Of a stretch of DNA of 64,000 bases, positions 687 through 61,430 are shown one piece after another; positions within the stretch are counted from its first letter, which is position 1; each line of letters opens with the position of its first letter. The translations under genes were made by a program, and so were the position numbers. The stretch comes from an uncultured Clostridia bacterium (GTDB lineage Bacteria; Bacillota; Clostridia; TANB77; CAG-508). The stretch is from positions 7,133 through 71,132 of the forward strand of contig CAJFRV010000012.1 of assembly GCA_904419495.1 (NCBI GenBank). Direction: 5' to 3'. Under the pieces are notes generated by a model. The model was not told the DNA's origin and made no database searches. It saw only the letters and a list, made by a program, of their open reading frames with translations.

Positions 687-1514
687 TTACTCACTTACTG
701 TTATTTTCTTAAATATAATTTCTGCATTTTCTTTTTGTATATTCAATCCAAGATACATCTTTGGTATATATAAATTAAATTCATTTCCTTCATCAAACAT
801 TAATTTCAAATGATATCCTAATATTGTTTCTTTTGCTTTTTTTACAATTAATTTATTTATGTCAAAAATATATCCTCGTTCAATATATTTTTTGGTCTTT
901 TTAGATAATTCAAAAAAATAACTTTGTGTATCATCAAAGCACAACAAATAAGCTGGGCTTATAAATGTCTTTTCCCATAATATATGTTTCTTTTTTATTG
1001 GTTTTACCTTTACCACCAAATATTTCATATTTTGTATATGATTAATCTTGAAAAATTCTTGAACATTTTTACCATTAAACTTTTTGAATTCATAAGCTTT
1101 TGTCTTTTTTTCTTTATCAAAAAAACTTTTTCTTCCTATTGTTTTTGCTTTTACTTTTTCTATTATTTTTTTATTTATCAGATAACCAACAAATACGCCT
1201 ACTGTATAAGCACAAACTAACAATAAATTTATTCTTAAAATAAATATATAGCCCAATATATACACTATAATACTATTTCTCAAAAAATTTTTACTAAATT
1301 CCTTTTCTGTAAATTCTCCTATATATTTTTTCATAGTAGACATTGCTAAAATACTTCCTAATAATGGTGCTATAAAAATCAACATTAAAAGAAGAATTAA
1401 TGTACTACTATTAGCAGAAATGATATTGATTGCCAATACCATAAAGATTTCTATTGCTATGAATAATAGAATGGAATAAAGAATAAAAAATTTTCTTTGT
1501 GTCATATTTTTCAT
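687..1514 (-). CDS. Membrane protein of unknown function (about four N-terminal TM helices plus a soluble C-terminal domain)
   Basis: ORF track, 275 aa. Hydrophobic helices include FILYSILLFIAIEIFMVLAINII, LILLLMLIFIAPLLGSILA, IIVYILGYIFIL and LLVCAYTVGVFVGYLI. I recognise no motif in the C-terminal ~150 aa. It ends 19 nt upstream of the tcdA start on the same strand. Confidence 0.6.
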   Translation of the reverse strand: MKNMTQRKFFILYSILLFIAIEIFMVLAINIISANSSTLILLLMLIFIAPLLGSILAMSTMKKYIGEFTEKEFSKNFLRNSIIVYILGYIFILRINLLLVCAYTVGVFVGYLINKKIIEKVKAKTIGRKSFFDKEKKTKAYEFKKFNGKNVQEFFKINHIQNMKYLVVKVKPIKKKHILWEKTFISPAYLLCFDDTQSYFFELSKKTKKYIERGYIFDINKLIVKKAKETILGYHLKLMFDEGNEFNLYIPKMYLGLNIQKENAEIIFKKITVSE

Positions 1515-1649: not shown

Positions 1650-1821
1650 GTTCTATTGCCTAAGGGGATATATATTATATTTTTAAGCGAGTTTCGTGGG
1701 GACCGACACACTACATATTCTTAATAAATCAGTGACAGCACCGTGGGAACTGATTTAGTTAGAATATGTAAAGTGTTGGGATAGCGTAAAATATAATATA
1801 TATCCCCTTAGGCAATAGAAC
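1650..1821. repeat. Foldback element, family 1, copy 1 (33-bp perfect outer stem, conserved asymmetric core)
   Basis: gttctattgcctaaggggatatatattatattt (1650-1682) is the exact reverse complement of aaatataatatatatccccttaggcaatagaac (1789-1821). The inner core GTTTCGTGGGGACCGACAC ... GTGTTGGGATAGCG is shared with the copy at 11315-11497. It lies between divergently transcribed genes. Confidence 0.9.
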
Positions 1822-1929
1822 ATTAAAATAGTAAAATTAAAAGCTTATATCTTTTGGATTGAAATTTAACTTGCTAAATGTTTATAAATGGTATACAATA
1901 CAATCACTTATTATTTTAAGGAGTTATAT

Positions 1930-3522
1930 ATGTTACGAATTCAAAATATAAAAATACGAAAAAATATTTCTGATGAGGCACTGATTCATTTCGTTTTAAA
2001 GACATATCATATTAGCCCTTCAGATGTTATTGATTGGCATATTGTAAAAAAGTCTATCGATGCTAGAAAAAAGACAGATGTTCACTTTCAATATACAATT
2101 GATATCCATGTAAAAGATGAAAATAAATACCCACATGTTCAAAAAACAAAAACTACAGATATTGAAAATACAATAAATCCTAATATGCTTGTTTCTTTAA
2201 AATCAGAACCTTCTCCCGTCATTATTGGAGCAGGTCCTGCTGGATTATTTTCGGCTTTAACCTTTATCCAAAATGGTATTTCTCCCATTATTATTGAACA
2301 AGGAAAAACAGTAGAAGATAGAAAAAAAGATGTTGATAATTTTTTACACCACAAAATTTTAAATTGTTCATCAAATGTGCAATTTGGTGAAGGTGGTGCT
2401 GGTACTTTCTCTGACGGCAAATTAACGACTGGAATTCACAATCCTTTATGTCAAAAAGTTTTAAAAGAATTTGTTCATTTTGGAGCTCCTGAAGAAATTT
2501 TATACCTATCAAAACCGCATATTGGAACAGATAAGTTAATTCATGTCATCCAAAACATGAGAAACTATATATTGTCAAAAGGTGGAACTTTTCATTTTAA
2601 TACAAAATTTATTAACTTTACGATTAAAGATAATAGGATACATTCGGTATTATTAAAAAACTTAGAGAACAACACCATTTTTGAGATACCAGCTACAAGA
2701 TTAATTTTAGCTATTGGTCATAGTTCAAGAGATACTTTTGAATTGTTATATCAAAATGGTATTCATATGGAAAAGAAAAATTTTTCTGTTGGTGTTAGAA
2801 TTGAACATCTACAAAAAGCAATTAATTCAGCACAATATGGTGAAATAACAAATTTAAAACTACCTCCTGCTGAATACAAATTGGCCTATCATTCTTCTTC
2901 TGGTCGTTCTTGCTATACGTTTTGTATGTGTCCGGGTGGAACAGTTATCGCCTCTTCCAGTGAAAAACATACGATTGTTACAAATGGTATGAGTAATTAT
3001 TTAAGAAATGGTACAAATGCAAATTCTGCCTTACTTGTAAATGTAACACCTGAAGACTTTATTGATACTTCTCCTTTAGCAGGTATCTATTTTCAAAAAA
3101 ATTTAGAAGAAAAAGCTTTTGTATTAGGAGGCTCAAACTATCATGCACCTGTTCAAAAAGTAGAAGATTTCTTAAAAAACAGAAAATCTTCTTGTATTGG
3201 TTCTATTATTCCTTCTTATCTACCCGGCTACACTTTGTCTAATTTAAATGATATTCTTCCAGAATTTGTTTCTACTACATTAAAGGAAGGTATTTTATAT
3301 TTTGACAAAAAATTAAAAGGATTTGCTAATCCAGATAGTATATTAACAGGTGTTGAAACAAGAAGCTCCTCTCCTGTCAAAATACCTAGAGATATAAATT
3401 GCATATCAAATGTAGATGGGATCTATCCTTGTGGTGAAGGTGCTGGATATGCAGGTGGTATCATGTCTGCTGCTGTAGATGGAATACATACAAGTTTATC
3501 AATTTTAAGGACTATTCACTAG
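1930..3522 (+). CDS. FAD-dependent oxidoreductase (COG2509-type uncharacterised FAD-dependent dehydrogenase)
   Basis: ORF track 1888..3522. I place the start at ATG 1930 (MLRIQNIKI...), which sits 6 nt after AAGGAG at 1918-1923. Dinucleotide-binding motif VIIGAGPAGLFSAL; C-terminal GIYPCGEGAGYAGGI typical of this family. Confidence 0.75.
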   Translation: MLRIQNIKIRKNISDEALIHFVLKTYHISPSDVIDWHIVKKSIDARKKTDVHFQYTIDIHVKDENKYPHVQKTKTTDIENTINPNMLVSLKSEPSPVIIGAGPAGLFSALTFIQNGISPIIIEQGKTVEDRKKDVDNFLHHKILNCSSNVQFGEGGAGTFSDGKLTTGIHNPLCQKVLKEFVHFGAPEEILYLSKPHIGTDKLIHVIQNMRNYILSKGGTFHFNTKFINFTIKDNRIHSVLLKNLENNTIFEIPATRLILAIGHSSRDTFELLYQNGIHMEKKNFSVGVRIEHLQKAINSAQYGEITNLKLPPAEYKLAYHSSSGRSCYTFCMCPGGTVIASSSEKHTIVTNGMSNYLRNGTNANSALLVNVTPEDFIDTSPLAGIYFQKNLEEKAFVLGGSNYHAPVQKVEDFLKNRKSSCIGSIIPSYLPGYTLSNLNDILPEFVSTTLKEGILYFDKKLKGFANPDSILTGVETRSSSPVKIPRDINCISNVDGIYPCGEGAGYAGGIMSAAVDGIHTSLSILRTIH

Positions 3523-5636: not shown

Positions 5637-5813
5637 GACAAATCTCGCTTCGTGAGAACTTTTTTCTACTTTTTTAATTTAACTATATATATTTAAGTTC
5701 TCGAAGAAGCGTAAAGATTTGTCGAGGCGAAAAATTGCTATACAATTTTTCTGTACAATGTTATTTTTTTATTGAATAGGAAAAATCGCTTTTTCCTATT
5801 CAATAAAAAAATA
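5637..5813. repeat. Composite intergenic repeat, family 2, copy A (hairpin module, conserved linker, bidirectional terminator hairpin)
   Basis: gacaaatctcgcttcgtgagaac...gttctcgaagaagcgtaaagatttgtc hairpin, then ...caatttttctgtacaa..., then ttattgaataggaaaaatcgctttttcctattcaataa. The same architecture occurs at 19228-19402, and the 3' half alone at 61311-61390. Confidence 0.85.
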
Positions 5814-5840: not shown

Positions 5841-7574
5841 TTATTTTGTATAATAAAATTCTCCATATCCATATTCTACTTTATAATATTCTTTAATAAA
5901 TTCTGGCTCTGTTTTTACATTAAAAGTATAGGTTGGTTCTACTATAATTTCTCCTTTGCTATTAACAACACCCCATTTTCCATCTAGCTCAATTCCTGCA
6001 TATCCATAAGAATTTATATCTGTGGTTTTATCATAAATATAATCTATAACTACCTTTCCAGATTTATCAACAAATCCCCATTTTCCATCTTGAGATTTTG
6101 CATAAATTTGATTATCTGGCAATACCTCCGTATTTTGTTTTTCATTTCCTTGTAAATCAAAATATCTTGTTTCTGTATCATTATACACTTTTACATAATT
6201 TTCTTCTGTATTAATTATTCCATTTGTCATTTCACATAGTTGTTGTAAATCTTTATTGTAAATTTGTATTGAATTATTTTCTGATAATCTTGTTATTATA
6301 TAATCTGTATTATCTAATTTCTCAATAGAATCATATTTTGTATCTATAATTTTTTCTCCTTTATCATTAATAACCCCTACTTTTCCACCTGTTATAGAAA
6401 CAATAAAATAGTTATCATATAAGTAATCAATATACGTATAGTTTTCTGTAGTTAATTGATTTCCTTCTTTATCTATAATACTATATACTGATCCTTGTGA
6501 ATTATCTATTTTAATTTTATAATTCTCATTTTCTGTTTCTAATGTATAAATATTACTATCTATATCTACTTTTGTTCCATCTTTTTTATACACTTGTATA
6601 TTTCCACTTGCATCAGTTGCATATATATACATACCTGTACTATCTATTTGTGTAAATTCAATTGGTATAATAATATTTCCTTCAATTGTTGCTACACCAA
6701 ATTTTTTTGTTTTTTCTAATGTTACTGTTCCATTTTCGCTATTATAAGAAATAGATTGATATTCATTTTTTATAACCTGCTTCTCATTTTTATACATACC
6801 ATATTGTCCGTTTTGAGCAGCTATCAAATAAATATCATTACCTTTTATATCTATGATTCTAGATATCTCATTATATTCTGTTTGTAATATCATATTTCCT
6901 TTAACATCCACATATCCATATCGATATCCATTTTCTGTTGTATTAGATACAATATATCCAGCATCTTTATATCCATTTTCTTCTGTTGTATAATTATCCG
7001 GACTTATTTGATCATATTCTGCCTTTACTAATTCATTACCTTTATTATTGATAACACCATACTTTCCATCTATCTTTACTAATAATTCTCCCTCTTTATA
7101 TGGTAATCCTTCAATAGATTCATAAATCGGTTTTGCAATTATCTCTCCTTCTAAATTGATTAATCCTATTTTTCCATCTTGCTCATAAGTTAATACATTC
7201 TTCTCATACATTAAATCACTAGCAATATTTTTCAACTTTATCGGCTGTATATGACTATATTGTGCATATATTTGTTCTTGATTTTGATTCAATATTTTGG
7301 TCTCTTCTCCTGTATAGCAGATAAAAACTTCTTTTTCTGGGTTTGGTATTACGATATTTGTATATTCTGGATCGATTACAATATCTCCATTTTTATTGAT
7401 AACCCCATAATTTCCATTTTGTCTTAATATAAAATACTGATAATTGTCAACACTTAATTTCTCGATTTCATATTGTCTTCCATTTTCTTTAATTTGTTGA
7501 TACACAAACCATCCTACTATTCCTAATACAATTAGTAATATAATGATTAATATAACTATATATTTTTTCTTCAT
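5841..7574 (-). CDS. WG-repeat (KWG-type) protein with N-terminal membrane anchor
   Basis: ORF track 5841..7598. Likely start is ATG 7574 (MKKKYIVILIIILLIVLGIVGWF), after AAGGTAGGGA. It contains many units of the form G(K/Q)(W/Y)G(V/F)(I/V)(N/D)xxG. Confidence 0.8.
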   Translation of the reverse strand: MKKKYIVILIIILLIVLGIVGWFVYQQIKENGRQYEIEKLSVDNYQYFILRQNGNYGVINKNGDIVIDPEYTNIVIPNPEKEVFICYTGEETKILNQNQEQIYAQYSHIQPIKLKNIASDLMYEKNVLTYEQDGKIGLINLEGEIIAKPIYESIEGLPYKEGELLVKIDGKYGVINNKGNELVKAEYDQISPDNYTTEENGYKDAGYIVSNTTENGYRYGYVDVKGNMILQTEYNEISRIIDIKGNDIYLIAAQNGQYGMYKNEKQVIKNEYQSISYNSENGTVTLEKTKKFGVATIEGNIIIPIEFTQIDSTGMYIYATDASGNIQVYKKDGTKVDIDSNIYTLETENENYKIKIDNSQGSVYSIIDKEGNQLTTENYTYIDYLYDNYFIVSITGGKVGVINDKGEKIIDTKYDSIEKLDNTDYIITRLSENNSIQIYNKDLQQLCEMTNGIINTEENYVKVYNDTETRYFDLQGNEKQNTEVLPDNQIYAKSQDGKWGFVDKSGKVVIDYIYDKTTDINSYGYAGIELDGKWGVVNSKGEIIVEPTYTFNVKTEPEFIKEYYKVEYGYGEFYYTK

Positions 7575-7587
7575 ATAATTCCCTACC

Positions 7588-8916
7588 TTATTCTTCATTT
7601 TCTATTTCTTCTTCTGTCTCTATTATATTATTCTTACACGCTTTTACTTTTAATATTCTCTTATCTTCATATTCTTCTATTTTATAGGTTACTTTTTTTG
7701 TTTCTATTACTGGTTTTTCCTCATCTTCTGGGATTCTTCCTAATTCCTCTTGTAAAAAGCCTGATATGGTATCATAATCACCTTCTGGAATTCCTGCATC
7801 TAATAATTTATTGACATCATAAATCGGCAAACTTCCTGCTAGCATATAGGTATTTTCATCAATTTTTTCATATTCTTTTTCTTCTTTGTCATATTCATCA
7901 TATATGTCTCCAACAAGTTCTTCTAATATATCCTCCATAGTAACTAATCCTGCTGTTCCACCATACTCATCAACAATAATGGCAATTTGCATTTTGTTTT
8001 TTTGTAATTCTTTAAACACTTCATTAATTAAACGATTTTGTGATATAAAGTATGCTTCTTTTATGATATTCTTTACTTTGAAACTTTTCTTATTGATATT
8101 TTTCAATACATCTTTTACATATAAGATACCTTTTATTTCATCAATTGTTTCATCATATACCGGAATTCTACTATAACGATATTCTTCTTTAGATAACTCA
8201 TCCATTAATTCTTCATTACTAATGCCAATATCTACTGCAAATATATCTTTTCTATGTCTCATGATTTCAGATACGGTAATATCATTAAATTCAAAAACAT
8301 TATTGATTAATTCTTTTTCCTCTTCTTTAATCGTTCCTTTTTCTTCTCCTTGATTTACCATCATTTTGATTTCTTCTTCTGTAACGGTTTCTTCTTCATT
8401 TTCTCCAACACCAAACAATTTAGATATCGTATTGGTAACAACTGTTAGTAATTTCACAAACGGTGCTGTTACAATAGAGATTCCTCTAATCACTCCTATT
8501 GTTGCAAAAGATATCTTTTCATAATGTTTCATTGCTAATCGTTTTGGCACCAATTCTCCAAAAACCAAAGTAAAAAATGACAATATAATGGTTATGATAA
8601 TAATAGATATGCTTTTCCACACGCCTATACTAACAGCTGGTATCCAGCCATTTAATATTGGTGCTAACATATCAGCAAAAGTTTCTGATGCAAAAGCACT
8701 TGATAAAAATCCAGCAAGAGTAATTCCAATTTGTATAGTTGCTAAAAATTTGCTTGGCTCCTTTAACATTTTTTCAATTTGTTTTGCTTTTTTATTTCCT
8801 TCCTTTGCTTGTTTTTCTATTTTAGCATCATTTAATGATATAAATGCAATTTCACTCGCCGCAAAATATGCATTTAACAAAATCAGTATAACTAAGACGA
8901 TTAATTGTGAAAACAT
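7588..8916 (-). CDS. CNNM/HlyC-CorC family transporter (DUF21, CBS pair, CorC_HlyC)
   Basis: 442 aa. N-terminal TM DUF21 region (LNAYFAASEIAF), a CBS pair (VSEIMRHRKDIFAV ... GGTAGLVTMEDILEELVG), and a C-terminal CorC-type domain. Confidence 0.85.
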   Translation of the reverse strand: MFSQLIVLVILILLNAYFAASEIAFISLNDAKIEKQAKEGNKKAKQIEKMLKEPSKFLATIQIGITLAGFLSSAFASETFADMLAPILNGWIPAVSIGVWKSISIIIITIILSFFTLVFGELVPKRLAMKHYEKISFATIGVIRGISIVTAPFVKLLTVVTNTISKLFGVGENEEETVTEEEIKMMVNQGEEKGTIKEEEKELINNVFEFNDITVSEIMRHRKDIFAVDIGISNEELMDELSKEEYRYSRIPVYDETIDEIKGILYVKDVLKNINKKSFKVKNIIKEAYFISQNRLINEVFKELQKNKMQIAIIVDEYGGTAGLVTMEDILEELVGDIYDEYDKEEKEYEKIDENTYMLAGSLPIYDVNKLLDAGIPEGDYDTISGFLQEELGRIPEDEEKPVIETKKVTYKIEEYEDKRILKVKACKNNIIETEEEIENEE

Positions 8917-11128: not shown

Positions 11129-11314
11129 CTGTTTTCTCTCCTTAAAAATAATTTTTTATGCTTGTTTGGATTTTTTATTCGAATAAAATAATTGATTAAA
11201 TTTTTTAAATCTTGAACTAAAAAGTATAGTACTATATATACATAGTAATACATTTTTTCCCATTTGTAAAGAAGTTTTCATCGCAAAATTCGACATTCAT
11301 AATAGTTACAGTTC

Positions 11315-11497
11315 AACATTCTCACTAAGAGGGGCTATATATAAATTATATTTTAAGCGGGTTTCGTGGGGACCGACACGATACATATTGTTCATAAATC
11401 AGTGACTGCCTGCAGAAACTGATTTATCTACAATATGTAAAGTGTTGGGATAGCGAAAAATATAATTTATATATAGCCCCTCTTAGTGAGAAATGTT
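11315..11497. repeat. Foldback element, family 1, copy 2
   Basis: ctcactaagaggggctatatataaattatattt (11321-11353) is the exact reverse complement of aaatataatttatatatagcccctcttagtgag (11458-11490). The core GTTTCGTGGGGACCGACAC ... GTGTTGGGATAGCG is the same as in copy 1. Confidence 0.9.
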
Positions 11498-11501
11498 AAA
11501 C

Positions 11502-13007
11502 TTATATTTTCAAGTCTAATTCAAAATAGAATTCAACACCATTATCTTTATTAATCACACCATAATCATTTTTATAATTACTCATAATTGCCTTTACAAA
11601 TGATAAACCTATTCCTGTTCCTCCATCTGCTCTGTTTCTAGATTCATCAACTTTATAGAAACGATTCCAAATTCTTGTTAAATCTTCTTCTTTTATATTC
11701 ACACCTGTATTAAATACTTTTATTCTCACTTTATTTTTTTCTACATTTACCACATTTTCTATAATAATGCTTTTCTTCCCGTCTACTTCTTCAACATGTT
11801 TAATGGCATTTGTTAAGTAATTGGTAATAACTTGCTCAATATAGAAATCATCTGCAATAACACTAATTTCTTCAGGAGATTTTAATTCTACGTCTACTTG
11901 TTTTTCTTCTAACATAACTTTTGATTTTCTGATAACTTCTTTTTCTAACTCTACAATATTAAATTCTTTATCAGAAAACTCTCTTTTTCCATATTCAAGT
12001 TTCATTAGCTCTAATAGCTGTTTCACCAATTTATCCATTTTATTTGTTTCATCTAGAATAACTTCTGCATAAAATTTTCTACTTTCGTCGTCTGTATTGA
12101 CATTTTCTAATAACCCCTCACTATACCCTTGTATTAATGCTATTGGAGTTTTCAATTCATGTGATACATCTGATATAAAGCTTTTTCTCATCTCATCAAT
12201 TTTCGATTTTTCTTCTATATCTTTCTCTAATTCTATATTGGTTCTTCTTAATTGTTTAATTGTACTTTCCAACTTATCTGACATAAGATTAATGCTTTTT
12301 CCTAAGTTGTTAATTTCATCATCTGCCTCTGTTATTCGATATTTATGGCTAAAATCTAAATTTGCCATATTTTTTGCAATTGTATTTAATTCTAGTATCG
12401 GATCTGTAAATTTCCTACTTACAAAAGTTACAATAACAGCTGATATCAATATGGTAAATCCCGCAATTAAATATAAGAAATTATTAGAAATTTTAACACT
12501 TTCCTCTATAGAAGAAACTGGTATTCTAATATATAATAAATAACCATTATCTAGTTTAGCAGATAGTAAAATATAAGACACACCTGTTTTTTTATCTTTT
12601 AAACGCCTAATAATAAATTTATCATTTTCTTCTATTAATTCACCAGCATTTATCGCATTTGTCATGGCATTCATTTCTCCAAAAGTAGACAAAAAATCTT
12701 TATTTGATGTGAATACATTAATATTGTCATCATCTTTTATTAAAATATCAAAATTATTTTTTATTGCTAATTTTTCTAATTCAGAATTAATATCTATATC
12801 TGTTGGATTATTATAATAATTATTAATTACTTTATATACTTCTTTTAAATCGTTTGTTTTACTATATAAATAGAATTGACCAAATACAAAATTATTTACT
12901 AGAATTAAAAATAATATAATTAATAATATAACTAATGATAACATTAAAAATAGTTTCACTCTTACTGATTTTAATGCATTTTTTATTTTTCCCATTTTTA
13001 TTCCCAT
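11502..13007 (-). CDS. Sensor histidine kinase (2 TM, HAMP, HisKA, HATPase_c)
   Basis: 501 aa. H-box FISDVSHELKTPIA, N-box NYLTNAIKH, G-box GGTGIGLSFVKAI. The start may be the internal ATG at 12995 (MGKIKN...), which has better RBS spacing. Confidence 0.85.
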   Translation of the reverse strand: MGIKMGKIKNALKSVRVKLFLMLSLVILLIILFLILVNNFVFGQFYLYSKTNDLKEVYKVINNYYNNPTDIDINSELEKLAIKNNFDILIKDDDNINVFTSNKDFLSTFGEMNAMTNAINAGELIEENDKFIIRRLKDKKTGVSYILLSAKLDNGYLLYIRIPVSSIEESVKISNNFLYLIAGFTILISAVIVTFVSRKFTDPILELNTIAKNMANLDFSHKYRITEADDEINNLGKSINLMSDKLESTIKQLRRTNIELEKDIEEKSKIDEMRKSFISDVSHELKTPIALIQGYSEGLLENVNTDDESRKFYAEVILDETNKMDKLVKQLLELMKLEYGKREFSDKEFNIVELEKEVIRKSKVMLEEKQVDVELKSPEEISVIADDFYIEQVITNYLTNAIKHVEEVDGKKSIIIENVVNVEKNKVRIKVFNTGVNIKEEDLTRIWNRFYKVDESRNRADGGTGIGLSFVKAIMSNYKNDYGVINKDNGVEFYFELDLKI

Positions 13008-18159: not shown

Positions 18160-18261
18160 TGTATTACCTCCTCTCCTAAAATATTTCATATAACTATACA
18201 TAATTATATTATTCGACGTATTTTACATAAATCCTTCTACTTGTCAAAAAAAATGTCTGAT

Positions 18262-18428
18262 TGATGATTTTGGGTGTCAAGAGGCAGAGCGATGATTTTG
18301 GGGACGGAGCAAAAAATCATCATTTATTCTATAAAAAATTTTATAAAAGAATCTTTATAGAAATGATGATTTTTTGCTCCGTCCCTCCCCAAAATCATCG
18401 CTCTGCCTCTTGACACCCAAAATCATTA
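18262..18428. repeat. Foldback element, family 3 (arms of ~65 nt, near perfect)
   Basis: The left arm gatgattttgggtgtcaagaggcagagcgatgattttggggacggagcaaaaaatcatcattt pairs with aaatgatgattttttgctccgtccctccccaaaatcatcgctctgcctcttgacacccaaaatcat. There is one small bulge (ccct). Confidence 0.9.
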
Positions 18429-18436
18429 ATTGGATA

Positions 18437-19227: not shown

Positions 19228-19402
19228 GACAAATCTCGCTTATCGAGAACTTTTCTCGTCTTTTCTAATTTAACTATATGTATTTAAGTTCTCGATGAAG
19301 CGTAAAGATTTGTCGACGCAAAAAAATGCATAGCAATTTTTCTGTGCAACATTATTTTTTATTGAATAGAAAAAATTTATTTTCCTTTTCAATAAAAAAA
19401 TA
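19228..19402. repeat. Composite intergenic repeat, family 2, copy B
   Basis: gacaaatctcgcttatcgagaac...gttctcgatgaagcgtaaagatttgtc, then caatttttctgtgcaac, then ttattgaatagaaaaaatttattttccttttcaataa. Collinear with 5637-5813. Confidence 0.85.
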
Positions 19403-27896: not shown

Positions 27897-28652
27897 ATGG
27901 AAAACGATAAAAATATACAAGATAATGAAAAAGATTTAAGATATTATGCCAAAGTACATTCTATAGAAACTTTTGGAGCTGTTGATGGACCGGGAATTCG
28001 TTTTGTTTTATTTCTTCAAGGTTGCCATCTACAATGTAAATATTGTCACAATCGTGATACTTGGGATATGAAAGAAGGAAAATATCAATCTGTTGATGAT
28101 ATCTATAAGATGATTTTAAAATATAAAAATTATATTACTCCAAATGGAGGTGTCACCATTTCTGGCGGAGAACCTTTATTGCAAGTAAAATTCTTAATTG
28201 AATTATTTACCAAATTGAAAAAGAAAAAAATTCATACTTGTATCGATACTTCTGGAATGGTAGCATTAACTGATGATATTAAGTATTTGTTAACATTAAC
28301 CGACTTAGTTCTTTTAGATATTAAACATATTGATAGTGAAAAATGTAAGGATTTAGTTGGTTTTGATAATAAACTAGAATTAGCATTTGCAAAATATTTA
28401 AGTGATAATCATATACCAATATGGATCAGACAAGTATTGGTTCCGGGGTTTACAGATGATGAAAACGACTTACGAAAACTTAAAGATTTTATTTCTTCTT
28501 TAAATACTGTTGAAAAGGTAGAAATTTTACCTTACCATAGTATTGGTAAATACAAATGGACTAAACTAGGACTTAAATATGATTTAGAAAATATTAAAGA
28601 TGCAACTAGTGATGATGTGAAACGAGCAAAAGCCATTTTAGGAATCAGCTAA
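27897..28652 (+). CDS. pflA: Pyruvate formate-lyase activating enzyme (radical SAM)
   Basis: 251 aa. Radical-SAM cluster CHLQCKYCHN, and GGVTISGGEPLLQ. Directly downstream of pflB. Confidence 0.95.
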   Translation: MENDKNIQDNEKDLRYYAKVHSIETFGAVDGPGIRFVLFLQGCHLQCKYCHNRDTWDMKEGKYQSVDDIYKMILKYKNYITPNGGVTISGGEPLLQVKFLIELFTKLKKKKIHTCIDTSGMVALTDDIKYLLTLTDLVLLDIKHIDSEKCKDLVGFDNKLELAFAKYLSDNHIPIWIRQVLVPGFTDDENDLRKLKDFISSLNTVEKVEILPYHSIGKYKWTKLGLKYDLENIKDATSDDVKRAKAILGIS

Positions 28653-28946
28653 TGTCCAATTGGGGACGTTTCTATTTGGGACATTTTTATGTAAAGTTTC
28701 ATCTATAAAAATACTATATAATAAAAATTTATTACATTCCTCGGCTAACATTACATCATAAAGAAAAATTAAAGGTATCTAATAGGCACCTCTCAAAATC
28801 AAGTTTTGAGATTCTCCTATTAGATACCTTAATTTTTTCTAATATGATTTCATTCACATTCGTCATTTCATAAATTTTTATTATATAGTATTTTTATGCT
28901 AAATTATATTTTAAATGTCCCAAACAGAAACGTCCCCAATTGGACA
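28653..28946. mobile_element. MITE-like foldback element, family 4, long copy (conserved inverted termini TGTCCAATTGGGGACGTTTCT...)
   Basis: Left end tgtccaattggggacgtttctatttgggacattt; right end aaatgtcccaaacagaaacgtccccaattggaca. It carries nested internal palindromes (aaggtatctaatagg...cctattagatacctt). It fills the whole gap between the convergent stops of pflA (28652) and ORF 28950. Confidence 0.8.
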
Positions 28947-28949
28947 ACA

Positions 28950-29885
28950 TTACATTCCTAATAATTTTAATTCTATATTTTCCATTTTGTATTTTCCATC
29001 AACTAATTTGAATTCTACTAGTGTATCTTCTAAAGTTTCTTTATTTTGTCTTAAATCTGTTGTAAAGTATAATTTAATTTGAGAAATTTCTAATTGATTT
29101 GCTACTATTTCTTTAAATGTTTCAGCCATATGTTTTTCATCTTCACAAATTAGAATTAATTGTGGCATACCACTAAATCCGGAATCTCCCGGAACATAAT
29201 TTTCATAAAATTCCTTATATAGTCTCATTCTTTCAACTAATTTCTTTTTCCAATCTGGTTCTCTTCTAATAACTTCAAACACAAATTGAATTGATTTTCC
29301 GTTTTTTGTAAGTTTAACTGCTCCACCACTTGCCTTAAATAACTTTCCTGAAACTTTTGCAGTTATCGCTGGTTTTACAATATAACTGTCAAATGCTTTT
29401 ACTTTTCTTAAATAAGCAATTAAAGTTTGATTTCCAGCCAATCTTTTTTTAATCATTGGTACTGGTTTTGTATTATCTGATGGTTGCCATTTACAATCAA
29501 TTTCTTTAGAATTCAATAAATATTTTCCCATTTTTTCTAAACAGTAAATTCTATAAATTCCTTTTCCTTCATCAGAAGTAAAATAATATCTTGTTAAAAT
29601 TTTAGACTTTACTAGTTGATCTAATTTATTATTCAATTTATCTTGTGATTTTGGATCAATTCCTTTTATTTCAAGCATTTGATACAATTGTCTTGATGTA
29701 ATAAATTCAAATTCATTTACTAAGTCTAAAATTGCAAAATGGATTTCATTAATATGTCCAATATTAATCTTATGTACGATTTGATTCATTGACACATACC
29801 CATCTTTTCCATCAAAAGTTTTTATTTCACCTTCTCTTATGGCAAATGGAGATACTTGTGCCTTGATTTCATTATCTTCTACCAT
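28950..29885 (-). CDS. Hypothetical protein, possibly replication-relaxation (Replic_Relax)-like with a winged-helix N-terminal region
   Basis: 311 aa. RBS GGGGGA. The pattern HFAILDLVNEFEFITSRQLYQMLE...LDQLVKSKILTRYYF...GIYRIYCLEKMGKYLL resembles the wHTH-plus-'YxL..G' pattern of plasmid Replic_Relax proteins. This is recalled from memory only. Confidence 0.35.
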   Translation of the reverse strand: MVEDNEIKAQVSPFAIREGEIKTFDGKDGYVSMNQIVHKINIGHINEIHFAILDLVNEFEFITSRQLYQMLEIKGIDPKSQDKLNNKLDQLVKSKILTRYYFTSDEGKGIYRIYCLEKMGKYLLNSKEIDCKWQPSDNTKPVPMIKKRLAGNQTLIAYLRKVKAFDSYIVKPAITAKVSGKLFKASGGAVKLTKNGKSIQFVFEVIRREPDWKKKLVERMRLYKEFYENYVPGDSGFSGMPQLILICEDEKHMAETFKEIVANQLEISQIKLYFTTDLRQNKETLEDTLVEFKLVDGKYKMENIELKLLGM

Positions 29886-50214: not shown

Positions 50215-50253
50215 AAAAGCCTATTAGTTATAAAAGCACACTAATAGGCTTTT
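50215..50253. terminator. Bidirectional hairpin terminator between leuS and the repeat-protein gene
   Basis: aaaagcctattagt-tataaaagcac-actaataggctttt. Confidence 0.7.
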
Positions 50254-50692
50254 ATGTATTTTGAATTTTTGAATTTAAAATATAAATTTGATGATCATGT
50301 TTTTCTAACATTTTTTCACATTTTGTAAGTCTTTTATTTTGTTCTTCAATTTTTTCTGTATTTACTTTAAATGCATCAAACAAAACTGCTAATTTTTCAC
50401 CATGTTCAACTTCGATTCTAGCAACAGATCCACTAATATTACGCAATTCCTGTTTGATTTCTGGTATTTCTTCCAACTGTTTTTTGATTTCTGGTATTTC
50501 TTCCAACTGTTTTTTGATTTTTGGTATCTCTTCCAATTGTTTTTTGATTTTTGGTATCTCTTCCAACTGTTTTTTGATTTTTGGTATCTCTTCCAATTGT
50601 TTTTTCATTTCCGGTATGTCTTTCACTTTGTCTTTTGTTTCTTGTAATTCTTTATATATTTTTAAAAGTAAATCTCGATTTGTGTTACTCAT
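50252..50692 (-). CDS. Coiled-coil protein with a tandem 10-aa repeat (EIP[KE]IKKQLE, about 5.5 units), unknown function
   Basis: 146 aa: ...DIPEMKKQLEEIPKIKKQLEEIPKIKKQLEEIPKIKKQLEEIPEIKKQLEEIPEIKQELRN... followed by ARIEVEHGEKLAVLFDAFKVNTEKIEE. Confidence 0.6.
   Translation of the reverse strand: MSNTNRDLLLKIYKELQETKDKVKDIPEMKKQLEEIPKIKKQLEEIPKIKKQLEEIPKIKKQLEEIPEIKKQLEEIPEIKQELRNISGSVARIEVEHGEKLAVLFDAFKVNTEKIEEQNKRLTKCEKMLEKHDHQIYILNSKIQNT
50458..50625. repeat. Tandem 30-nt coding repeat (about 5.5 units) inside ORF 50252..50692
   Basis: The unit tttctggtatttcttccaactgttttttga recurs head to tail at 50458, 50488, 50518, 50548 and 50578, with a few substitutions. Confidence 0.95.
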
Positions 50693-50927
50693 TCTTTCCC
50701 TCCTTTCTTTTTTTGATATTATATATTCTAAAATCCATCATGTCAACAAAAACATTTCGACAAAATTCTACATTTATATTATCCTTATTTTACGTTTCTC
50801 AGTTTTATTCCATTTATCATCAACATTTGTCATTAAACTGTAAAAAAGATTTAATCATATTGAAATATTCTTCATCTTTTCTTATAGTATAATATGGTTA
50901 GATAATTATATACTAAGGAGAATTAGA

Positions 50928-52031
50928 ATGAGTATTAAATCTGATTTAAAAAAGGATGGAATTGAAGTAATACAAAAACTTGATACTTTAAAAATAAATT
51001 CTATTGCTAAAAATATTGCTTCAAAGCTATGTCAAACATTTCCTTCATATGGATTAAATGAAAATGAGTTATTTATAAAATTATCTAGATTGGATATGTA
51101 TAGAGCTAAGATGCCTGAAGGAATGGCAGAAGCCAATTACTATTACAAAAATACGTCCATTTATTTTAATGAACACATTCCTGAAGAGGATATGGAAGAA
51201 TTTGCTATCCATGAATGTATCCATTATCTTCAAGAAATAAAAGATAAAAGAAACTACTTACTAAAAATGGGATTATGTGATTATACAGAATTTAAAATCT
51301 ATGGATTAGGTTTGAACGAAGCAGCTGTCCAATTAATGTCTTCAAAAGTCATTGGTATTCCTAAAGACTATGTAAAATACTTTGGAATTAGTTTCGAAAC
51401 AACAAGTCCTTCTTATTATCCTTTAGAATGTTGTTTAGTAAATCAGTTAGCTTTCATTACAGGTGAAGATGTTTTATTTAAGAGTACATTAAATAGTGAT
51501 GACAATTTTAAAATAAAATTCTCTCAATTAACTTCACCAAAAGCCTTTATGTCTATTCAAAACGCAATTGATGATATTCTTTTTGCAGAGGAAGATATTA
51601 TTAAATTAAACAATAAAATTGCCTTAGTTGAAGACAGAAATAAAAAAGTCGATGATATGGTTAAGAAAATTGATGATTTAAAAGAAAAAATAAAATTAAC
51701 GTTTTTAAGAACTCAAAATCTAATTATCTCTAGTTATTTTGATAAAGCTTTTATAAATATAACCAACTTAGAAGAGTTGGAAAATTATAGAAAAAAATTG
51801 TATGATATAAAATCTTATTTAGGATTCTCTGAAGGATATACTTTTTTTAATGATTATTATGTTGAGAAAATGTCCCAATTAGAACACAAATATAATATAC
51901 TAGAAAATGGTGGTATAGAAACTGCTATTAATATTCAGACCAAAACAGAAAGTAAATTTATAACTTTATTCAAAACCATTAAAAAATTCCTTTTAGGAAA
52001 ATCTTCGGAATCTCAAAAAAACGATATATAA
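50928..52031 (+). CDS. Hypothetical protein with an HExxH motif (putative zinc metallopeptidase)
   Basis: 367 aa. RBS AAGGAGA. FAIHECIHYLQE contains HECIH, and the C-terminal half looks helical/coiled. I recognise no other family signature. Confidence 0.4.
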   Translation: MSIKSDLKKDGIEVIQKLDTLKINSIAKNIASKLCQTFPSYGLNENELFIKLSRLDMYRAKMPEGMAEANYYYKNTSIYFNEHIPEEDMEEFAIHECIHYLQEIKDKRNYLLKMGLCDYTEFKIYGLGLNEAAVQLMSSKVIGIPKDYVKYFGISFETTSPSYYPLECCLVNQLAFITGEDVLFKSTLNSDDNFKIKFSQLTSPKAFMSIQNAIDDILFAEEDIIKLNNKIALVEDRNKKVDDMVKKIDDLKEKIKLTFLRTQNLIISSYFDKAFINITNLEELENYRKKLYDIKSYLGFSEGYTFFNDYYVEKMSQLEHKYNILENGGIETAINIQTKTESKFITLFKTIKKFLLGKSSESQKNDI

Positions 52032-52102
52032 AAATGAAGATACAATCTTTCTGATTTAGAGAATAATATGTGCGAATGAAAGAACATTATAAATTGTTGC
52101 AT

Positions 52103-52151
52103 AAAAAAGTAGGAGAATCTCAAACTTGCTTTGAGATTCTCCTACTTTTTT
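52103..52151. terminator. Bidirectional hairpin terminator
   Basis: aaaaaagtaggagaatctcaaa-cttgc-tttgagattctcctactttttt, between convergent genes 50928..52031 and 52217..53476. Confidence 0.8.
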
Positions 52152-52216
52152 ATGTTAGAATTTATTTGGACTGTAATGTTAGCCATATTATTCTCTAAAT
52201 CAGAAAGATTATATCT

Positions 52217-53476
52217 TCATTTTGCTATATTTTTTATCATACATTTTGCTGCTTCTCTTCCCGAATTTGCAGCCCATGCAACAGTTCCTTTTATTCCTGC
52301 CAAGTCCCCTCCAGAATAAATTTTAGGATTAGAAGTTCTATATTCTTCATCTATCTGTATGTTTCCCCATTTATTTAATTCCAATCCTAAATCTTTTACA
52401 TACTGTTGTGGTTTTGATCCTAATGCCATAACAATATAGTCTACATCTACTTGATAATTACTATTTTCAATATTGACAGGAGACAACCTGCTTTCTCCTT
52501 CTTTTTGAACTAACTTTGTTTTAATTAATTCTACACTTTCTACTTTTTTATCTCCTAATATCCTAACAATATTATTTTGAAAAGCAAATTTCACCCCTTC
52601 TGCTTTGGCATCTGCTATTTCCTTTTTTTCTGCTGGCATTTGTTCCTCTGCTCTTCTATAAACTACTGTTACCGTTTCTGCTCCTAATTTATTAATTGTT
52701 CTAGCACAATCCATTGCCACATTTCCTCCACCTGTAACAATTACTTTCTTGCCCTTATAATTAGGATGTAAATTATATTCTAATAATTCATTTCCTCCAT
52801 AAACACCTTCTAAGTTTTCTCCTTCAACTCCCATTTTAGAAGAACAATTTGCACCAATACTTAAAAATATTGCATCATATTCATTTTCTATGTCTTTCAA
52901 TGTAAAATCTTTTCCAAGTTCTTGACAATATTTTACTTCTATTCCTAAATCCAAAATATCTCTTACTGTATTTTCTACAATTTCTTTTGGTAGTCTAAAA
53001 TCTGGTATCCCGAACATTAGCAATCCACCTAAATAATCATATTTTTCATATATGGTTACTTTGATACCTTCTTTAGCTAAAAAAGCTGCACAAGTTAGTC
53101 CTGCTGGTCCTCCTCCGATTACTGATACTTTTTTATGTATCTTTTCTTCCTTTTGATAACAATCTGATAAATGATATCCTAATTCATGTGCTTTATCAAA
53201 TGCATATGCTTCTAATTCTCCTATTGAAACAGCTTCTCCTTTTATACCTCTTACGCATGAACCTTGACATTGCTTTTCATGAGGACAAATTCTTCCACAT
53301 ACTCCCGGTAAAACTGTTGTTTCTGATAAAATTTTGTAAGCAGAAAAATATTCTTCTTTTTTTAAAGCTTGAATAAAATCTGGTATTTGGTTATTCAACG
53401 GGCATCCTTTTAGAGAACATGGTTTTACTTTACAGTTCAAACAATAATTTACTTTTTCTTCTACTTCTTTTATCAC
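52217..53476 (-). CDS. GltD/NfnB-like NAD(P)H-dependent oxidoreductase (glutamate synthase small-subunit family, 2x[4Fe-4S] plus FAD/NAD)
   Basis: 419 aa. N-terminal Cys clusters CLNCKVKPC...GCP and CGRICPHEKQCQGSC. Dinucleotide folds VIGGGPAGLTCA and VTGGGNVAMDCA. Confidence 0.8.
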   Translation of the reverse strand: MIKEVEEKVNYCLNCKVKPCSLKGCPLNNQIPDFIQALKKEEYFSAYKILSETTVLPGVCGRICPHEKQCQGSCVRGIKGEAVSIGELEAYAFDKAHELGYHLSDCYQKEEKIHKKVSVIGGGPAGLTCAAFLAKEGIKVTIYEKYDYLGGLLMFGIPDFRLPKEIVENTVRDILDLGIEVKYCQELGKDFTLKDIENEYDAIFLSIGANCSSKMGVEGENLEGVYGGNELLEYNLHPNYKGKKVIVTGGGNVAMDCARTINKLGAETVTVVYRRAEEQMPAEKKEIADAKAEGVKFAFQNNIVRILGDKKVESVELIKTKLVQKEGESRLSPVNIENSNYQVDVDYIVMALGSKPQQYVKDLGLELNKWGNIQIDEEYRTSNPKIYSGGDLAGIKGTVAWAANSGREAAKCMIKNIAK

Positions 53477-53659: not shown

Positions 53660-53910
53660 AACATATGTCACAGTTTAAACTAAATACTTGGGGACAAATA
53701 TATAATATAAATAAATGAAATAAATTTGCGTATCTAAATTTGAAGTTAGAAAGAACCAATAAAAATGTGAGGAATGTTCATTTTTAATGAAAGAGTCTCA
53801 CATTTTTATTGTGTTATTTCTACGAAAATTTAGCTTATACAAATTTGTGAATGATTTTATATTATATATTTGTCCCCAAGTATTTAGTCTGAACTGTAAC
53901 TAACATATTG
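53660..53910. repeat. Foldback element, family 5 (arms of ~110 nt)
   Basis: The left arm cacagtttaaactaaatacttggggacaaatatataatataaa... pairs with ...tttatattatatatttgtccccaagtatttagtctgaactgta. The outer ~40 nt are essentially perfect and the inner part is imperfect. The apical mini-hairpin is ttcatttttaatgaa. Confidence 0.9.
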
Positions 53911-60189: not shown

Positions 60190-60205
60190 AAATTTTCTCC
60201 TTTAC

Positions 60206-60364
60206 TGTCCAATTGGGGACGTTTCTTTTTGAGACATTTTTATGTAAAGTAAACTTTAATAAACTGTCTCTTAAGTAAATACTAAAAATTTAATTAATTA
60301 TTTTTATAAACATGAGAACACTTTACATAAAAATGTCTCAAAAAGAAACGTCCCCAATTGGACA
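60206..60364. mobile_element. MITE-like foldback element, family 4, short copy
   Basis: tgtccaattggggacgtttctttttgagacatttttatgtaaagt ... actttacataaaaatgtctcaaaaagaaacgtccccaattggaca. It abuts the ogg stop (60365) and lies 16 nt upstream of the addB start. Confidence 0.85.
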
Positions 60365-61234
60365 CTATGCTTCTCTCCTCCAATAGAATAAATATTGTTG
60401 TGCTAATCCTGCTAAGTTTCCAAATTTTTCTTGTGCTAATGCCTCTATTTGTTTTTTATTTACTTTTGTTTCATCCTTATTTTGAATATATAAATCATTC
60501 ATCACTCTTCTTACCCATACGTCTATTGGAAATACTTCCAGACGTTTTAAATCAGAAAATAGTAATATGCAATCTGCAACTTTTGGTCCTACTCCTGAAA
60601 GTGTCAATAATTTATTTCTTACCTCTATTGTGTTTTGATTTTTTTCTAAATCCTGTAAATTCACTTTTCCTTCTAATATCATTTTTGTCGTTTCATACAT
60701 TCTAATATCTCTAAATCCTAAACCTAATTCTCGATATTCTTTTACTGTAACATCTTTTAGTTCTTCTGGTGTTGGGAATGTATAATATATTTTTCCGTTC
60801 CATTCTATCTTTTTTCCATATGTTTTTGATAATCTTTCAATAATTCCCTTTATTCTTGGTATATTGTTATTAGCAGATATGATAAAAGAAATAATGGTTT
60901 CCCATAGATCTTGATTTAAAATTCTAATTCCTTTACCATATTGAATACTATCTTTCATGTAATTATCAATTTTAGATAAACTTTGTTTTATTTCCTCATA
61001 ATTCCTATCTAAATCAAAGTATTTCTGTATTTTCTCTTCTAAATTTCCATTTTTACATATACCAGAAAATATATAATCTTGTCCTTCTTTTTTTACATTA
61101 ACTACATTTTCTTGCCATACACCTGTATAACTTCCGTCTTCTTGTTCATTCCATCGGAAGCATTGTCCACATTCAAATATATCTCTTAAGTCAAAAGTTT
61201 GTGGTTTTTTTAATATATATTGCTGTTCTTTCAT
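60365..61234 (-). CDS. ogg: 8-oxoguanine DNA glycosylase / AP lyase (clostridial Ogg type, HhH-GPD)
   Basis: 289 aa. HhH-GPD region LTLSGVGPKVADCILLF with the catalytic Lys, and a downstream Asp (FPIDVWV). Confidence 0.8.
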   Translation of the reverse strand: MKEQQYILKKPQTFDLRDIFECGQCFRWNEQEDGSYTGVWQENVVNVKKEGQDYIFSGICKNGNLEEKIQKYFDLDRNYEEIKQSLSKIDNYMKDSIQYGKGIRILNQDLWETIISFIISANNNIPRIKGIIERLSKTYGKKIEWNGKIYYTFPTPEELKDVTVKEYRELGLGFRDIRMYETTKMILEGKVNLQDLEKNQNTIEVRNKLLTLSGVGPKVADCILLFSDLKRLEVFPIDVWVRRVMNDLYIQNKDETKVNKKQIEALAQEKFGNLAGLAQQYLFYWRREA

Positions 61235-61310: not shown

Positions 61311-61390
61311 GTAAAATTGTGCAGCAATTTTTCTGTGCAACATCGTTTTTTATTGAATAGGAAAAATTGATTTTTCCTATTTTAAAAAAA
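61311..61390. repeat. Family 2 repeat, copy C (3' module only)
   Basis: gtaaaattgtgcagcaatttttctgtgcaacatcgttttttattgaataggaaaaattgatttttcctatttt aligns with the 3' halves of 5637-5813 and 19228-19402. Confidence 0.8.
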
Positions 61391-61430
61391 TTACTCTACA
61401 CTTTCGTATAAAGTAATTTTATCATTTTAA

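Follow-up and report, generated by a model that had tools for sequence, protein, structure and literature searches.

The stretch of DNA analysed here, referred to as the window, comprises 64 kb of chromosomal DNA of low GC content (~27%) from an uncultured Clostridia bacterium (contig CAJFRV010000012.1) and contains two copies of a foldback element, Family-1, in which long inverted-repeat arms enclose a conserved asymmetric core. On the basis of these two copies and of ~85 copies gathered beyond them from metagenome-assembled genomes (MAGs) of related Clostridia and from metagenomes, Family-1 is identified as a non-autonomous foldback MITE (miniature inverted-repeat transposable element), carried by a clade of gut Clostridia that are uncultured, spore-forming and low in GC. 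Within a copy the two arms match each other and between copies they differ, changes in one arm are mirrored in the other after insertion, and the core occurs in both orientations relative to its flanks. A single arm-to-arm copying process at the DNA level probably accounts for both the mirroring and the flipping.

Copy 1 (+ orientation) is located between the divergent genes 687-1514 (- strand) and 1888-3522 (+ strand), as the initial annotation had noted, and more precisely between the best promoter-like sites of these two neighbours. The whole foldback extends from 1630 to 1838 with approximate boundaries when its degenerate tips are included; the left tip reads ATACAGTTCC and the right tip ends in ...AATAGTAAAA, both resembling the GTTAC(A/T)(G/A)TTCA of the family. 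The left outer arm of 35 nt (1649-1683) is the perfect complement of the right outer arm (1788-1822), and at 95% complementarity the arms reach 41 nt (1643-1683 and 1788-1828). The inner part of the arms is a conserved AT-rich inverted repeat, TATATATTATATTTT, at 1669-1683 with its partner at 1788-1802. The asymmetric conserved core of 104 nt (1684-1787) contains the 5′ junction motif GTTTCGTGGGGACCGACAC (1691-1709), an inner stem whose 5′ half with conserved bulges (1703-1733) pairs with the 3′ half (1749-1779), an apical loop region (1734-1748) that varies between subfamilies, and the 3′ junction motif AAAGTGTTGGGATAGCG (1770-1786). The latter is nearly invariant across all copies, although it was not the query of the first search.

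Copy 2 (~11305-11507, + orientation) begins with the left tip GTTACAGTTCAAC, and its right tip is degenerate and overlaps the stop codon of the open reading frame (ORF) 11502-13007. Its perfect outer arms of 36 nt are located at 11319-11354 and 11457-11492 and enclose a core of 102 nt (11355-11456), with the two junction motifs at 11361-11379 and 11439-11455 and the inner stem at 11373-11409 and 11412-11448. The cores of the two copies are ~90% identical, whereas the outer arms are related yet clearly diverged, in agreement with the initial annotation. The 33-nt arms that had been described as exact reverse complements within each copy are present, and perfect pairing even extends to 35-36 nt. 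Likewise, the C-G to G-C swap in the middle stem (acatattCtt/aaGaatatgt versus acatattGtt/aaCaatatgt) was found as described, and the unpaired junctions are unequal, with ~19 nt on the 5′ side and ~9 nt on the 3′ side (previously given as ~18 and ~8). Both copies are longer than initially given, as they reach to the degenerate tips. The 19-mer and 17-mer core motifs occur exactly twice each in the window, compared with 0.00 and 0.08 expected occurrences, and the z-score of the folding energy is -14.6 for copy 1 (RNA) and -15.4 for copy 2 (DNA).

For the collection of further copies, one genome per species was scanned for the exact 19-mer GTTTCGTGGGGACCGACAC, which yielded 62 loci (here as below, loci are numbered with the prefix L). 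Real copies are present at 59 of them, in ~19 MAGs of uncultured Clostridia with up to at least 9 copies per MAG. A profile search of all fetched DNA added only one copy lacking the exact 19-mer, and a metagenome scan with a 19-mer from the opposite side of the core added 26 loci, most of which belong to a second, young subfamily from one sample. At least 16 copies were found in one metagenome sample, and look-ups of flanking proteins provided ~40 additional strain-level loci. The copies are ~185-235 bp long, and the two halves of the core are nowhere more than ~100 nt apart. Every copy is intergenic, no ORF spans any of them, and they are solitary insertions between housekeeping and sporulation genes. 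Among 51 copies with assigned gene context, 38 lie between co-directional genes, typically 0-35 nt past the upstream stop codon, 7 between divergent and 6 between convergent genes. Many short metagenome contigs terminate inside the element (L079, L080, L082, L112, L113, L119-L125), and the family fragments short-read assemblies of these gut Clostridia.

No known family was recognised. The whole window gave no Rfam match at the gathering score, and at E<10 the element itself gave nothing specific, only generic hairpin (miRNA-precursor) matches below threshold; the Rfam hit that the initial annotation had listed as a ground for refutation was thus not obtained. The tRNA/tmRNA scan gave no hit, the full-text literature search for the core motifs gave no relevant match, and the scanned viral contigs contained no copy. 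Neither a recurrent transposase ORF nor a recurrently linked recombinase gene was present in the 62 loci of 8 kb each or in the window, whole genomes not having been searched for the tips. Clustering of the ORFs from the 62 loci and the window returned only housekeeping paralogues (ABC transporter, Asp-tRNA ligase, response regulator), and Pfam analysis of the + strand ORFs of the window returned metabolic genes.

The ends of the element are defined by the tips GTTAC(A/T)(G/A)TTCA...GTAAC (right end TGAA..GTAAC), which lead into the long arms. Each arm of ~45-65 nt consists of the tip, a stretch without sequence constraint and the conserved AT-rich inner repeat of 17-20 nt, and the enclosed asymmetric core measures 103 nt. 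Outside the tips, an 8-bp direct repeat with at least 7 of 8 matches flanks 11 of the 25 scorable copies (0.5% by chance); in the young subfamily the count is 10 of 13. The target 8-mers are diverse. Between RseP and glgP, L127 is empty and reads AGAATATTTTGA directly followed by AAAAACATTTGAC, with no palindrome, while at the same site L038 and its relatives hold the entire foldback, arms included, plus the duplicated ATTTTTTG. L062 is also without the element at the site where L019 has one. Insertion makes an 8-bp target-site duplication (TSD) and carries the arms along.

These data bear on the idea that only the core is mobile and that it enters palindromes already present, for instance terminator hairpins or other foldbacks, at their apex, so that the arms would be derived from the target. 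Several observations fit it: L018 contains an 81-nt coreless palindrome with the family tip (7552-7633) at the site of the full copy in L001, the cores of L014 and L056 lie inside 88-100-nt arms of another (GGGGACG) foldback family, several arms read as A-tract, GC stem and T-tract, and nested palindromes are present in the window. However, the TSDs flank the outer tips and not the core, no palindrome is present at the empty site L127, young copies have the same arms at different loci, arms that appear different still keep the landmarks TTCA..GT....GAAGGT and equal length, and, as described below, arms change in situ. Insertion of the core into palindromes is therefore considered very improbable, and as a general rule it was rejected on the position of the TSD and on the empty site. 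The arms of the coreless palindrome in L018 have ~5 mismatches, unlike those of core-bearing copies. A half element consisting of one arm and AGCGAAAAATATAAT was found in L004 (6997-7050) where L046 and L059 hold full copies, a case of decay by deletion. Moreover, copies of the young subfamily (L090, L088, L095, L096, L105) often adjoin fragments resembling the tip or one of the arm types (e.g. GTTACTAGATAATG, GGTTACTATTCATCA), which suggests clustered or nested insertion.

The complementarity of the arms within copies was determined for 58 measurable copies, with arms mostly 28-48 nt long. Only 36 mismatches were counted in 2298 positions (1.6%; 98.4% complementary), and the stretch between tip and inner repeat is often unrecognisably different from copy to copy, so that the claim of arms matching within copies and differing between them holds for the family. 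Arms do not in general mismatch as often as copies differ from each other; the exception is the young subfamily, in which the mid-arms are unlike (types S and H) and non-complementary in most copies. The perfection of the arms is not due to youth, because it is also seen in old copies whose target duplications retain only 2-5 of 8 matches. Of 46 fixed arm differences in 11 independent orthologous pairs, 35 are mirrored and 11 are confined to a single arm, and hence the mirroring arises in situ. At the RseP site, one insertion present in three lineages has three different mirrored mid-arms. Among strains, the arms of copy 2 form two haplotypes that differ by mirrored changes, and two contigs have mixed, mismatched arms. 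Insertions and deletions are mirrored too, as in the pair L037/L038 and in the AA/TT insertion of window copy 2. The pattern, which the initial annotation had described as the opposite of ordinary MITE decay, thus persists over ~85 copies. Not noticed at that stage were the bona fide MITE nature with an 8-bp TSD, the inversion of the core and the location of most copies directly behind stop codons.

The same observations bear on the possibility that the element moves as a single-stranded hairpin, as in repetitive extragenic palindromic (REP) doublets (REPINs) or IS200/IS605-type elements, and that only copies with perfect arms transpose, which would make all visible copies recent. Compensatory changes are known from hairpin-forming mobile DNA such as REPINs (PMC3116915), and the conserved bulged junctions resemble strand-specific recognition features. 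Yet the mirrored changes arise at orthologous sites after insertion, the old copies with decayed duplications retain perfect arms, and the actively spreading subfamily has unpaired mid-arms. In addition, the 8-bp TSD argues for staggered double-strand cuts, and IS200/IS605 and RAYT systems make no such duplications. A filter of this kind is scarcely probable at all.

In principle, mirrored changes could also result from selection on a transcript. Family-1 would then be a structured RNA (a small RNA gene, a 3′-UTR stabiliser or a terminator hairpin) in which all stems are kept by compensatory substitution. Its location agrees with this, since 38 of 51 copies lie between co-directional genes, but the outer arms behave differently. 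They show no tolerance of wobble pairs: on the + strand of the core, 19 arm mismatches are of the A:C type and 11 of the G:T type, G:T amounting to 0.5% of positions. Transversions are mirrored as readily as expected from the background spectrum, with 24 transitions to 11 transversions among the mirrored changes versus 1029 to 718 in the flanks (p=0.30). Arm perfection is equal in divergent, convergent and co-directional gene contexts, and the divergent copies include copy 1 between its two promoter-like sites. With the same genes on either side, the core may point either way, the element contains no conserved promoter or terminator consensus, and no Rfam family was matched even at E<10. Because the arms show no excess of G:T, a background mutation spectrum, independence of context, variable orientation and no Rfam match, the evidence for the outer arms points to a process at the DNA level and not at the RNA level.

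The inner stem gives a different picture. Double changes were found in 20 of 50 pairs, 98.2% of the cells are paired, and none of 500 shuffles reached this level; the covariation score is 0.181, compared with 0.063 for the shuffles and at most 0.035 when the partners were slid. The strong covariation of the inner stem is in line with a structured RNA. The signal is, however, likewise expected from folding of single-stranded DNA (ssDNA) or from arm copying. The inner stem also conserves internal loops and bulges, an invariant G:T (G:U in RNA) pair at columns 40:114 and a 2-bp helix that covaries between flanking mismatches. The U:G pairs at 59:95 and 62:94 are found on the + strand only, and the + strand folds better than the - strand (-88.4 vs -78.2 kcal/mol). 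Selection on the structure of the inner stem follows from the fact that indiscriminate copying would erase the conserved bulges, the G:T pair and the 2-bp helix. In the core, selection thus appears to act on a folded single strand, be it ssDNA or RNA, with a slight preference for the + strand. Of the two alternatives raised initially, structure selection and copying of one arm from the other, copying thus fits the outer arms with their mirroring, lack of wobble bias and flips, and structure fits the inner stem. An RNA function that maintains all stems of the element is unlikely. The mini-hairpin GUUUC-GUG-GGGAC was rejected as a conserved RNA feature, as the second subfamily has GGGTCGGGGGGAC instead. 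Tandem duplications within the core were observed in L016 (52 nt) and L019 (20 nt), each bounded by short repeats and consistent with slippage in a quasi-palindrome.

Divergence at orthologous sites was compared between sequence classes. It is 25.2% at four-fold degenerate sites, 19.0% at third codon positions, 6.1% and 3.9% at codon positions 1 and 2, and 12.2% in the non-coding flanks. Within the element it is 16.5% in the outer arm, 4.2% in the core and 2.7% in the 17-nt inner repeat. In view of 16.5% in the outer arm versus 25.2% at four-fold sites, the unconstrained part of the arm drifts at about the neutral rate, whereas the constraint on core and inner repeat equals that on non-synonymous sites. 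Hypermutation of the arms was rejected, as the density of single-nucleotide polymorphisms in the element among strains is only ~2x the locus mean and the arm divergence is below that of four-fold sites. Some paralogous cores in one genome (e.g. L006, L030, L037) are closer to each other than to their orthologues, which indicates some conversion between copies; such conversion cannot by itself slow the divergence of the whole family. The low divergence of core and inner repeat is therefore attributed to purifying constraint on the folded single strand, reinforced by some inter-copy conversion. That the core is conserved at the level of non-synonymous sites, whatever its orientation and gene context, points to a protein or single-strand function, and the core is probably a cis-acting site needed for propagation of the element.

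Inversion of the core relative to the flanks was found in 12 of 27 orthologous pairs, corresponding to at least 6 events in 13 groups. In flipped pairs the flanks match only once reverse-complemented, but the cores agree at 95-103 of 103 positions as they stand. L038 and L061 are flipped with flanks 99.5-100% identical. L041 and L062 are flipped as well, and this case is not due to assembler ambiguity because their arms are only 28-30 nt long and the assemblies were made from long k-mers. An identical RseP protein adjoins the core in either orientation (L114, L116 and L118 versus L115, L117 and L119). In the young subfamily, at least 8 copies have the arrangement S-core-H and two (L105, L108) have H-core-S; across the 20-bp inner repeat, the core has therefore turned round with respect to the arms that enclose it. 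In L114 and L116, the region downstream of the RseP gene has the left arm of the RseP locus joined via the common core to a right arm and flank of the L043 type (ROK gene side). This join is present in two independent assemblies; either two copies have really recombined into a new arrangement or the repeat has led the assembler to build a chimera.

Flipping of the core could also be the work of a trans-acting site-specific recombinase, the core with its AT-rich inner repeats being an inverton that rides on the MITE and changes the expression of its neighbours. The inversions between orthologues and between strains with an identical flanking protein are in keeping with this, as is the flipping in the young subfamily, where only the 20-bp inner repeat is complementary, and the inner repeat is conserved in sequence unlike the outer arms. 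On the other hand, the core contains no promoter or terminator consensus, and the absence of a recurrently linked recombinase gene in the 62 loci and the window speaks against it, though an enzyme may act in trans. The 20 strain contigs of the two window loci (10 + 10) all have the orientation of the window, with no orientation polymorphism. Moreover, a crossover at the inner repeat leaves the mirrored changes of the outer arms unexplained. An inverton is decidedly unlikely as an explanation.

We infer that mirroring and flipping result from one and the same process, namely copying from arm to arm at the DNA level, and regard this as probable. The route would be either template switching from arm to arm as the element is replicated or short-tract recombination of its terminal inverted repeats (TIRs) with heteroduplex repair. 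Template switching is known to correct imperfect inverted repeats and to invert loops (PMC5941160, PMC8794818), and TIR-TIR recombination inverts insertion sequence (IS) elements (PMC3004938). In Family-1, the template would be switched in one arm, the centre would be copied, and the switch would be undone in the second arm, by which part of one arm would be replaced by the complement of the other. A new mutation would thereby be either erased or mirrored, and the core would be inverted in the same event.

Several points weigh against arm-to-arm copying or limit its reach. The mechanism is deduced from its outcomes, and a low number of arm mismatches is predicted by selection and by arm copying alike. 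Selection on structure acts at least at the inner stem and could contribute in the arms. Homogenisation is neither fast nor obligatory and is slow compared with a transposition burst, because the actively spreading subfamily keeps unlike S and H arms; from the spread of this subfamily it also follows that pairing of the mid-arms is not required for transposition. The uniform orientation in the 20 strain contigs means that no flip was seen at the window loci themselves. Arms of 41-49 nt approach the k of 55 used in some short-read assemblies, and a few flips from such assemblies could be mis-orientations. Finally, the inner repeat is conserved in sequence and not merely in complementarity, a hint that a recombinase, transposase or other factor recognises its sequence. 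Taken further, core and inner repeat might constitute an active cis module that recruits a dedicated enzyme (a site-specific or structure-specific recombinase or nickase, or the transposase of the element) to resolve and re-copy the hairpin. We consider this quite unlikely; if it were true, both the perfect arms and the inverting core would be programmed, and the family would represent a new class of palindromic selfish DNA that maintains itself, either a bacterial 'flip-flop' akin to parvoviral terminal resolution or a mobile multi-locus inverton.

Apart from copies 1 and 2, the window contains a number of other repeats. The foldback at 53667-53900 (no strand assigned) has the family tip GTTACAGTTCAGAC, a G-rich block, an AT-rich inner repeat and an unrelated quasi-palindromic interior, and thus the same ends carry different centres. 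Other foldback families are located at 18260-18430, 28638-28961, 52019-52235 and 60203-60367; several of them contain GGGGACG(G/T), two of the loci consist of three palindromes nested in one another, and the elements at 60203 and 28650 have TGTCCAATT in common with the Family-1 arms. A dispersed repeat at 5637-5769, 19228-19360 and 61313-61393 (the first two 86% identical) is followed by a terminator-like palindrome. Where L023 has a Family-1 copy, this repeat fills the orthologous site, and in L010 (1-110) it adjoins a truncated copy; the spacers behind genes resemble hot spots of insertion. At 50414-50653, six tandem 30-nt units (68-100% identity to the reference copy) overlap ORFs on both strands (50252-50692, - strand; 50454-50843, + strand) and are probably a coding repeat.

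The persistence of perfect inverted repeats in bacteria is an old question, in which selection on structure is set against correction by template switching, and the usual evidence comes from short repeats or reporters. Family-1 provides dozens of orthologous, datable copies by which selection and mechanical correction can be separated within one element. The separable signals are the near-neutral mirrored arms, the classical covariation in the bulged inner stem and the orientation of the core, which records copying events. The family is also of practical relevance, as short-read assemblies of these bacteria are broken or wrongly joined at its copies, and it may mediate rearrangements between its copies.

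Among known systems, the bacterial MITEs Correia/NEMIS, ERIC/IRU and RUP are similar in that they are non-coding, dispersed, multi-copy elements of ~200 bp with TIRs and TSD, which lie in intergenic regions, often just downstream of genes, and form long hairpins. In contrast to these, strong conservation in Family-1 is confined to the centre and the sub-terminal repeat, most of the arm being free but mirrored, and for copies of such age the arms are much longer and more perfect than expected. Nor was a parent IS detected in the loci and the window. REPINs share with Family-1 the hairpin-forming, miniature and mobile nature and the compensatory changes in the less conserved part. They have conserved ends (GTAG or CGTC tag), a variable centre, no target duplication and a link to RAYT, whereas Family-1 has a conserved centre, variable arms and an 8-bp duplication; an assignment to REPINs or REP-RAYT was rejected on the TSD and on conservation that is central and not terminal. 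The IS200/IS605-derived PATE elements, which have no TIRs, no TSD, sub-terminal hairpins and a fixed tetra- or pentanucleotide 5′ of the insertion, were rejected in view of the TIRs, the 8-bp TSD and the diverse targets found here, and integron attC sites, which form cassette arrays with R/L boxes (GTTRRRY) beside intI, were rejected because the copies are solitary among housekeeping genes and the tips do not fit GTTRRRY.

Other systems resemble Family-1 in its inversion. Invertons likewise consist of a short segment between conserved inverted repeats of 17-20 bp that is found in both orientations, also within species, but in Family-1 the same invertible segment is present at every locus, rides on a MITE and contains no promoter. 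The terminal hairpin of parvoviruses such as adeno-associated virus (AAV) has a perfect outer stem around an asymmetric inner part and two inverted configurations (flip and flop), which arise by re-copying of one hairpin strand. It is, however, a linear viral telomere processed by the Rep nickase, and the likeness is one of outcome only, with no sign here of such an enzyme. In the TIR-TIR inversions of ISWpi1 in Wolbachia (PMC3004938), the interior of the element is inverted relative to the flanks via its own TIRs; these concern a full-length IS and 9% of loci, in contrast to a 200-bp MITE with homogenised arms and inversions in about half of the orthologous groups. Correction by template switching, or quasipalindrome mutagenesis (PMC5941160, PMC8794818), agrees with Family-1 in that repeats are perfected, changes of several bases as well as insertions and deletions are mirrored in one step, loops can be inverted and no wobble bias is seen. 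Documented examples are mainly short repeats, or rRNA/miRNA stems whose loops measure a few nucleotides, whereas in Family-1 the process would recur on arms of 35-50 nt across a spacer of 103 nt in dozens of copies. Family-1 is a real and previously undescribed MITE family whose behaviour is best explained by known palindrome-correcting processes, and it is most likely a very clear natural case of these processes and not a new kind of system.

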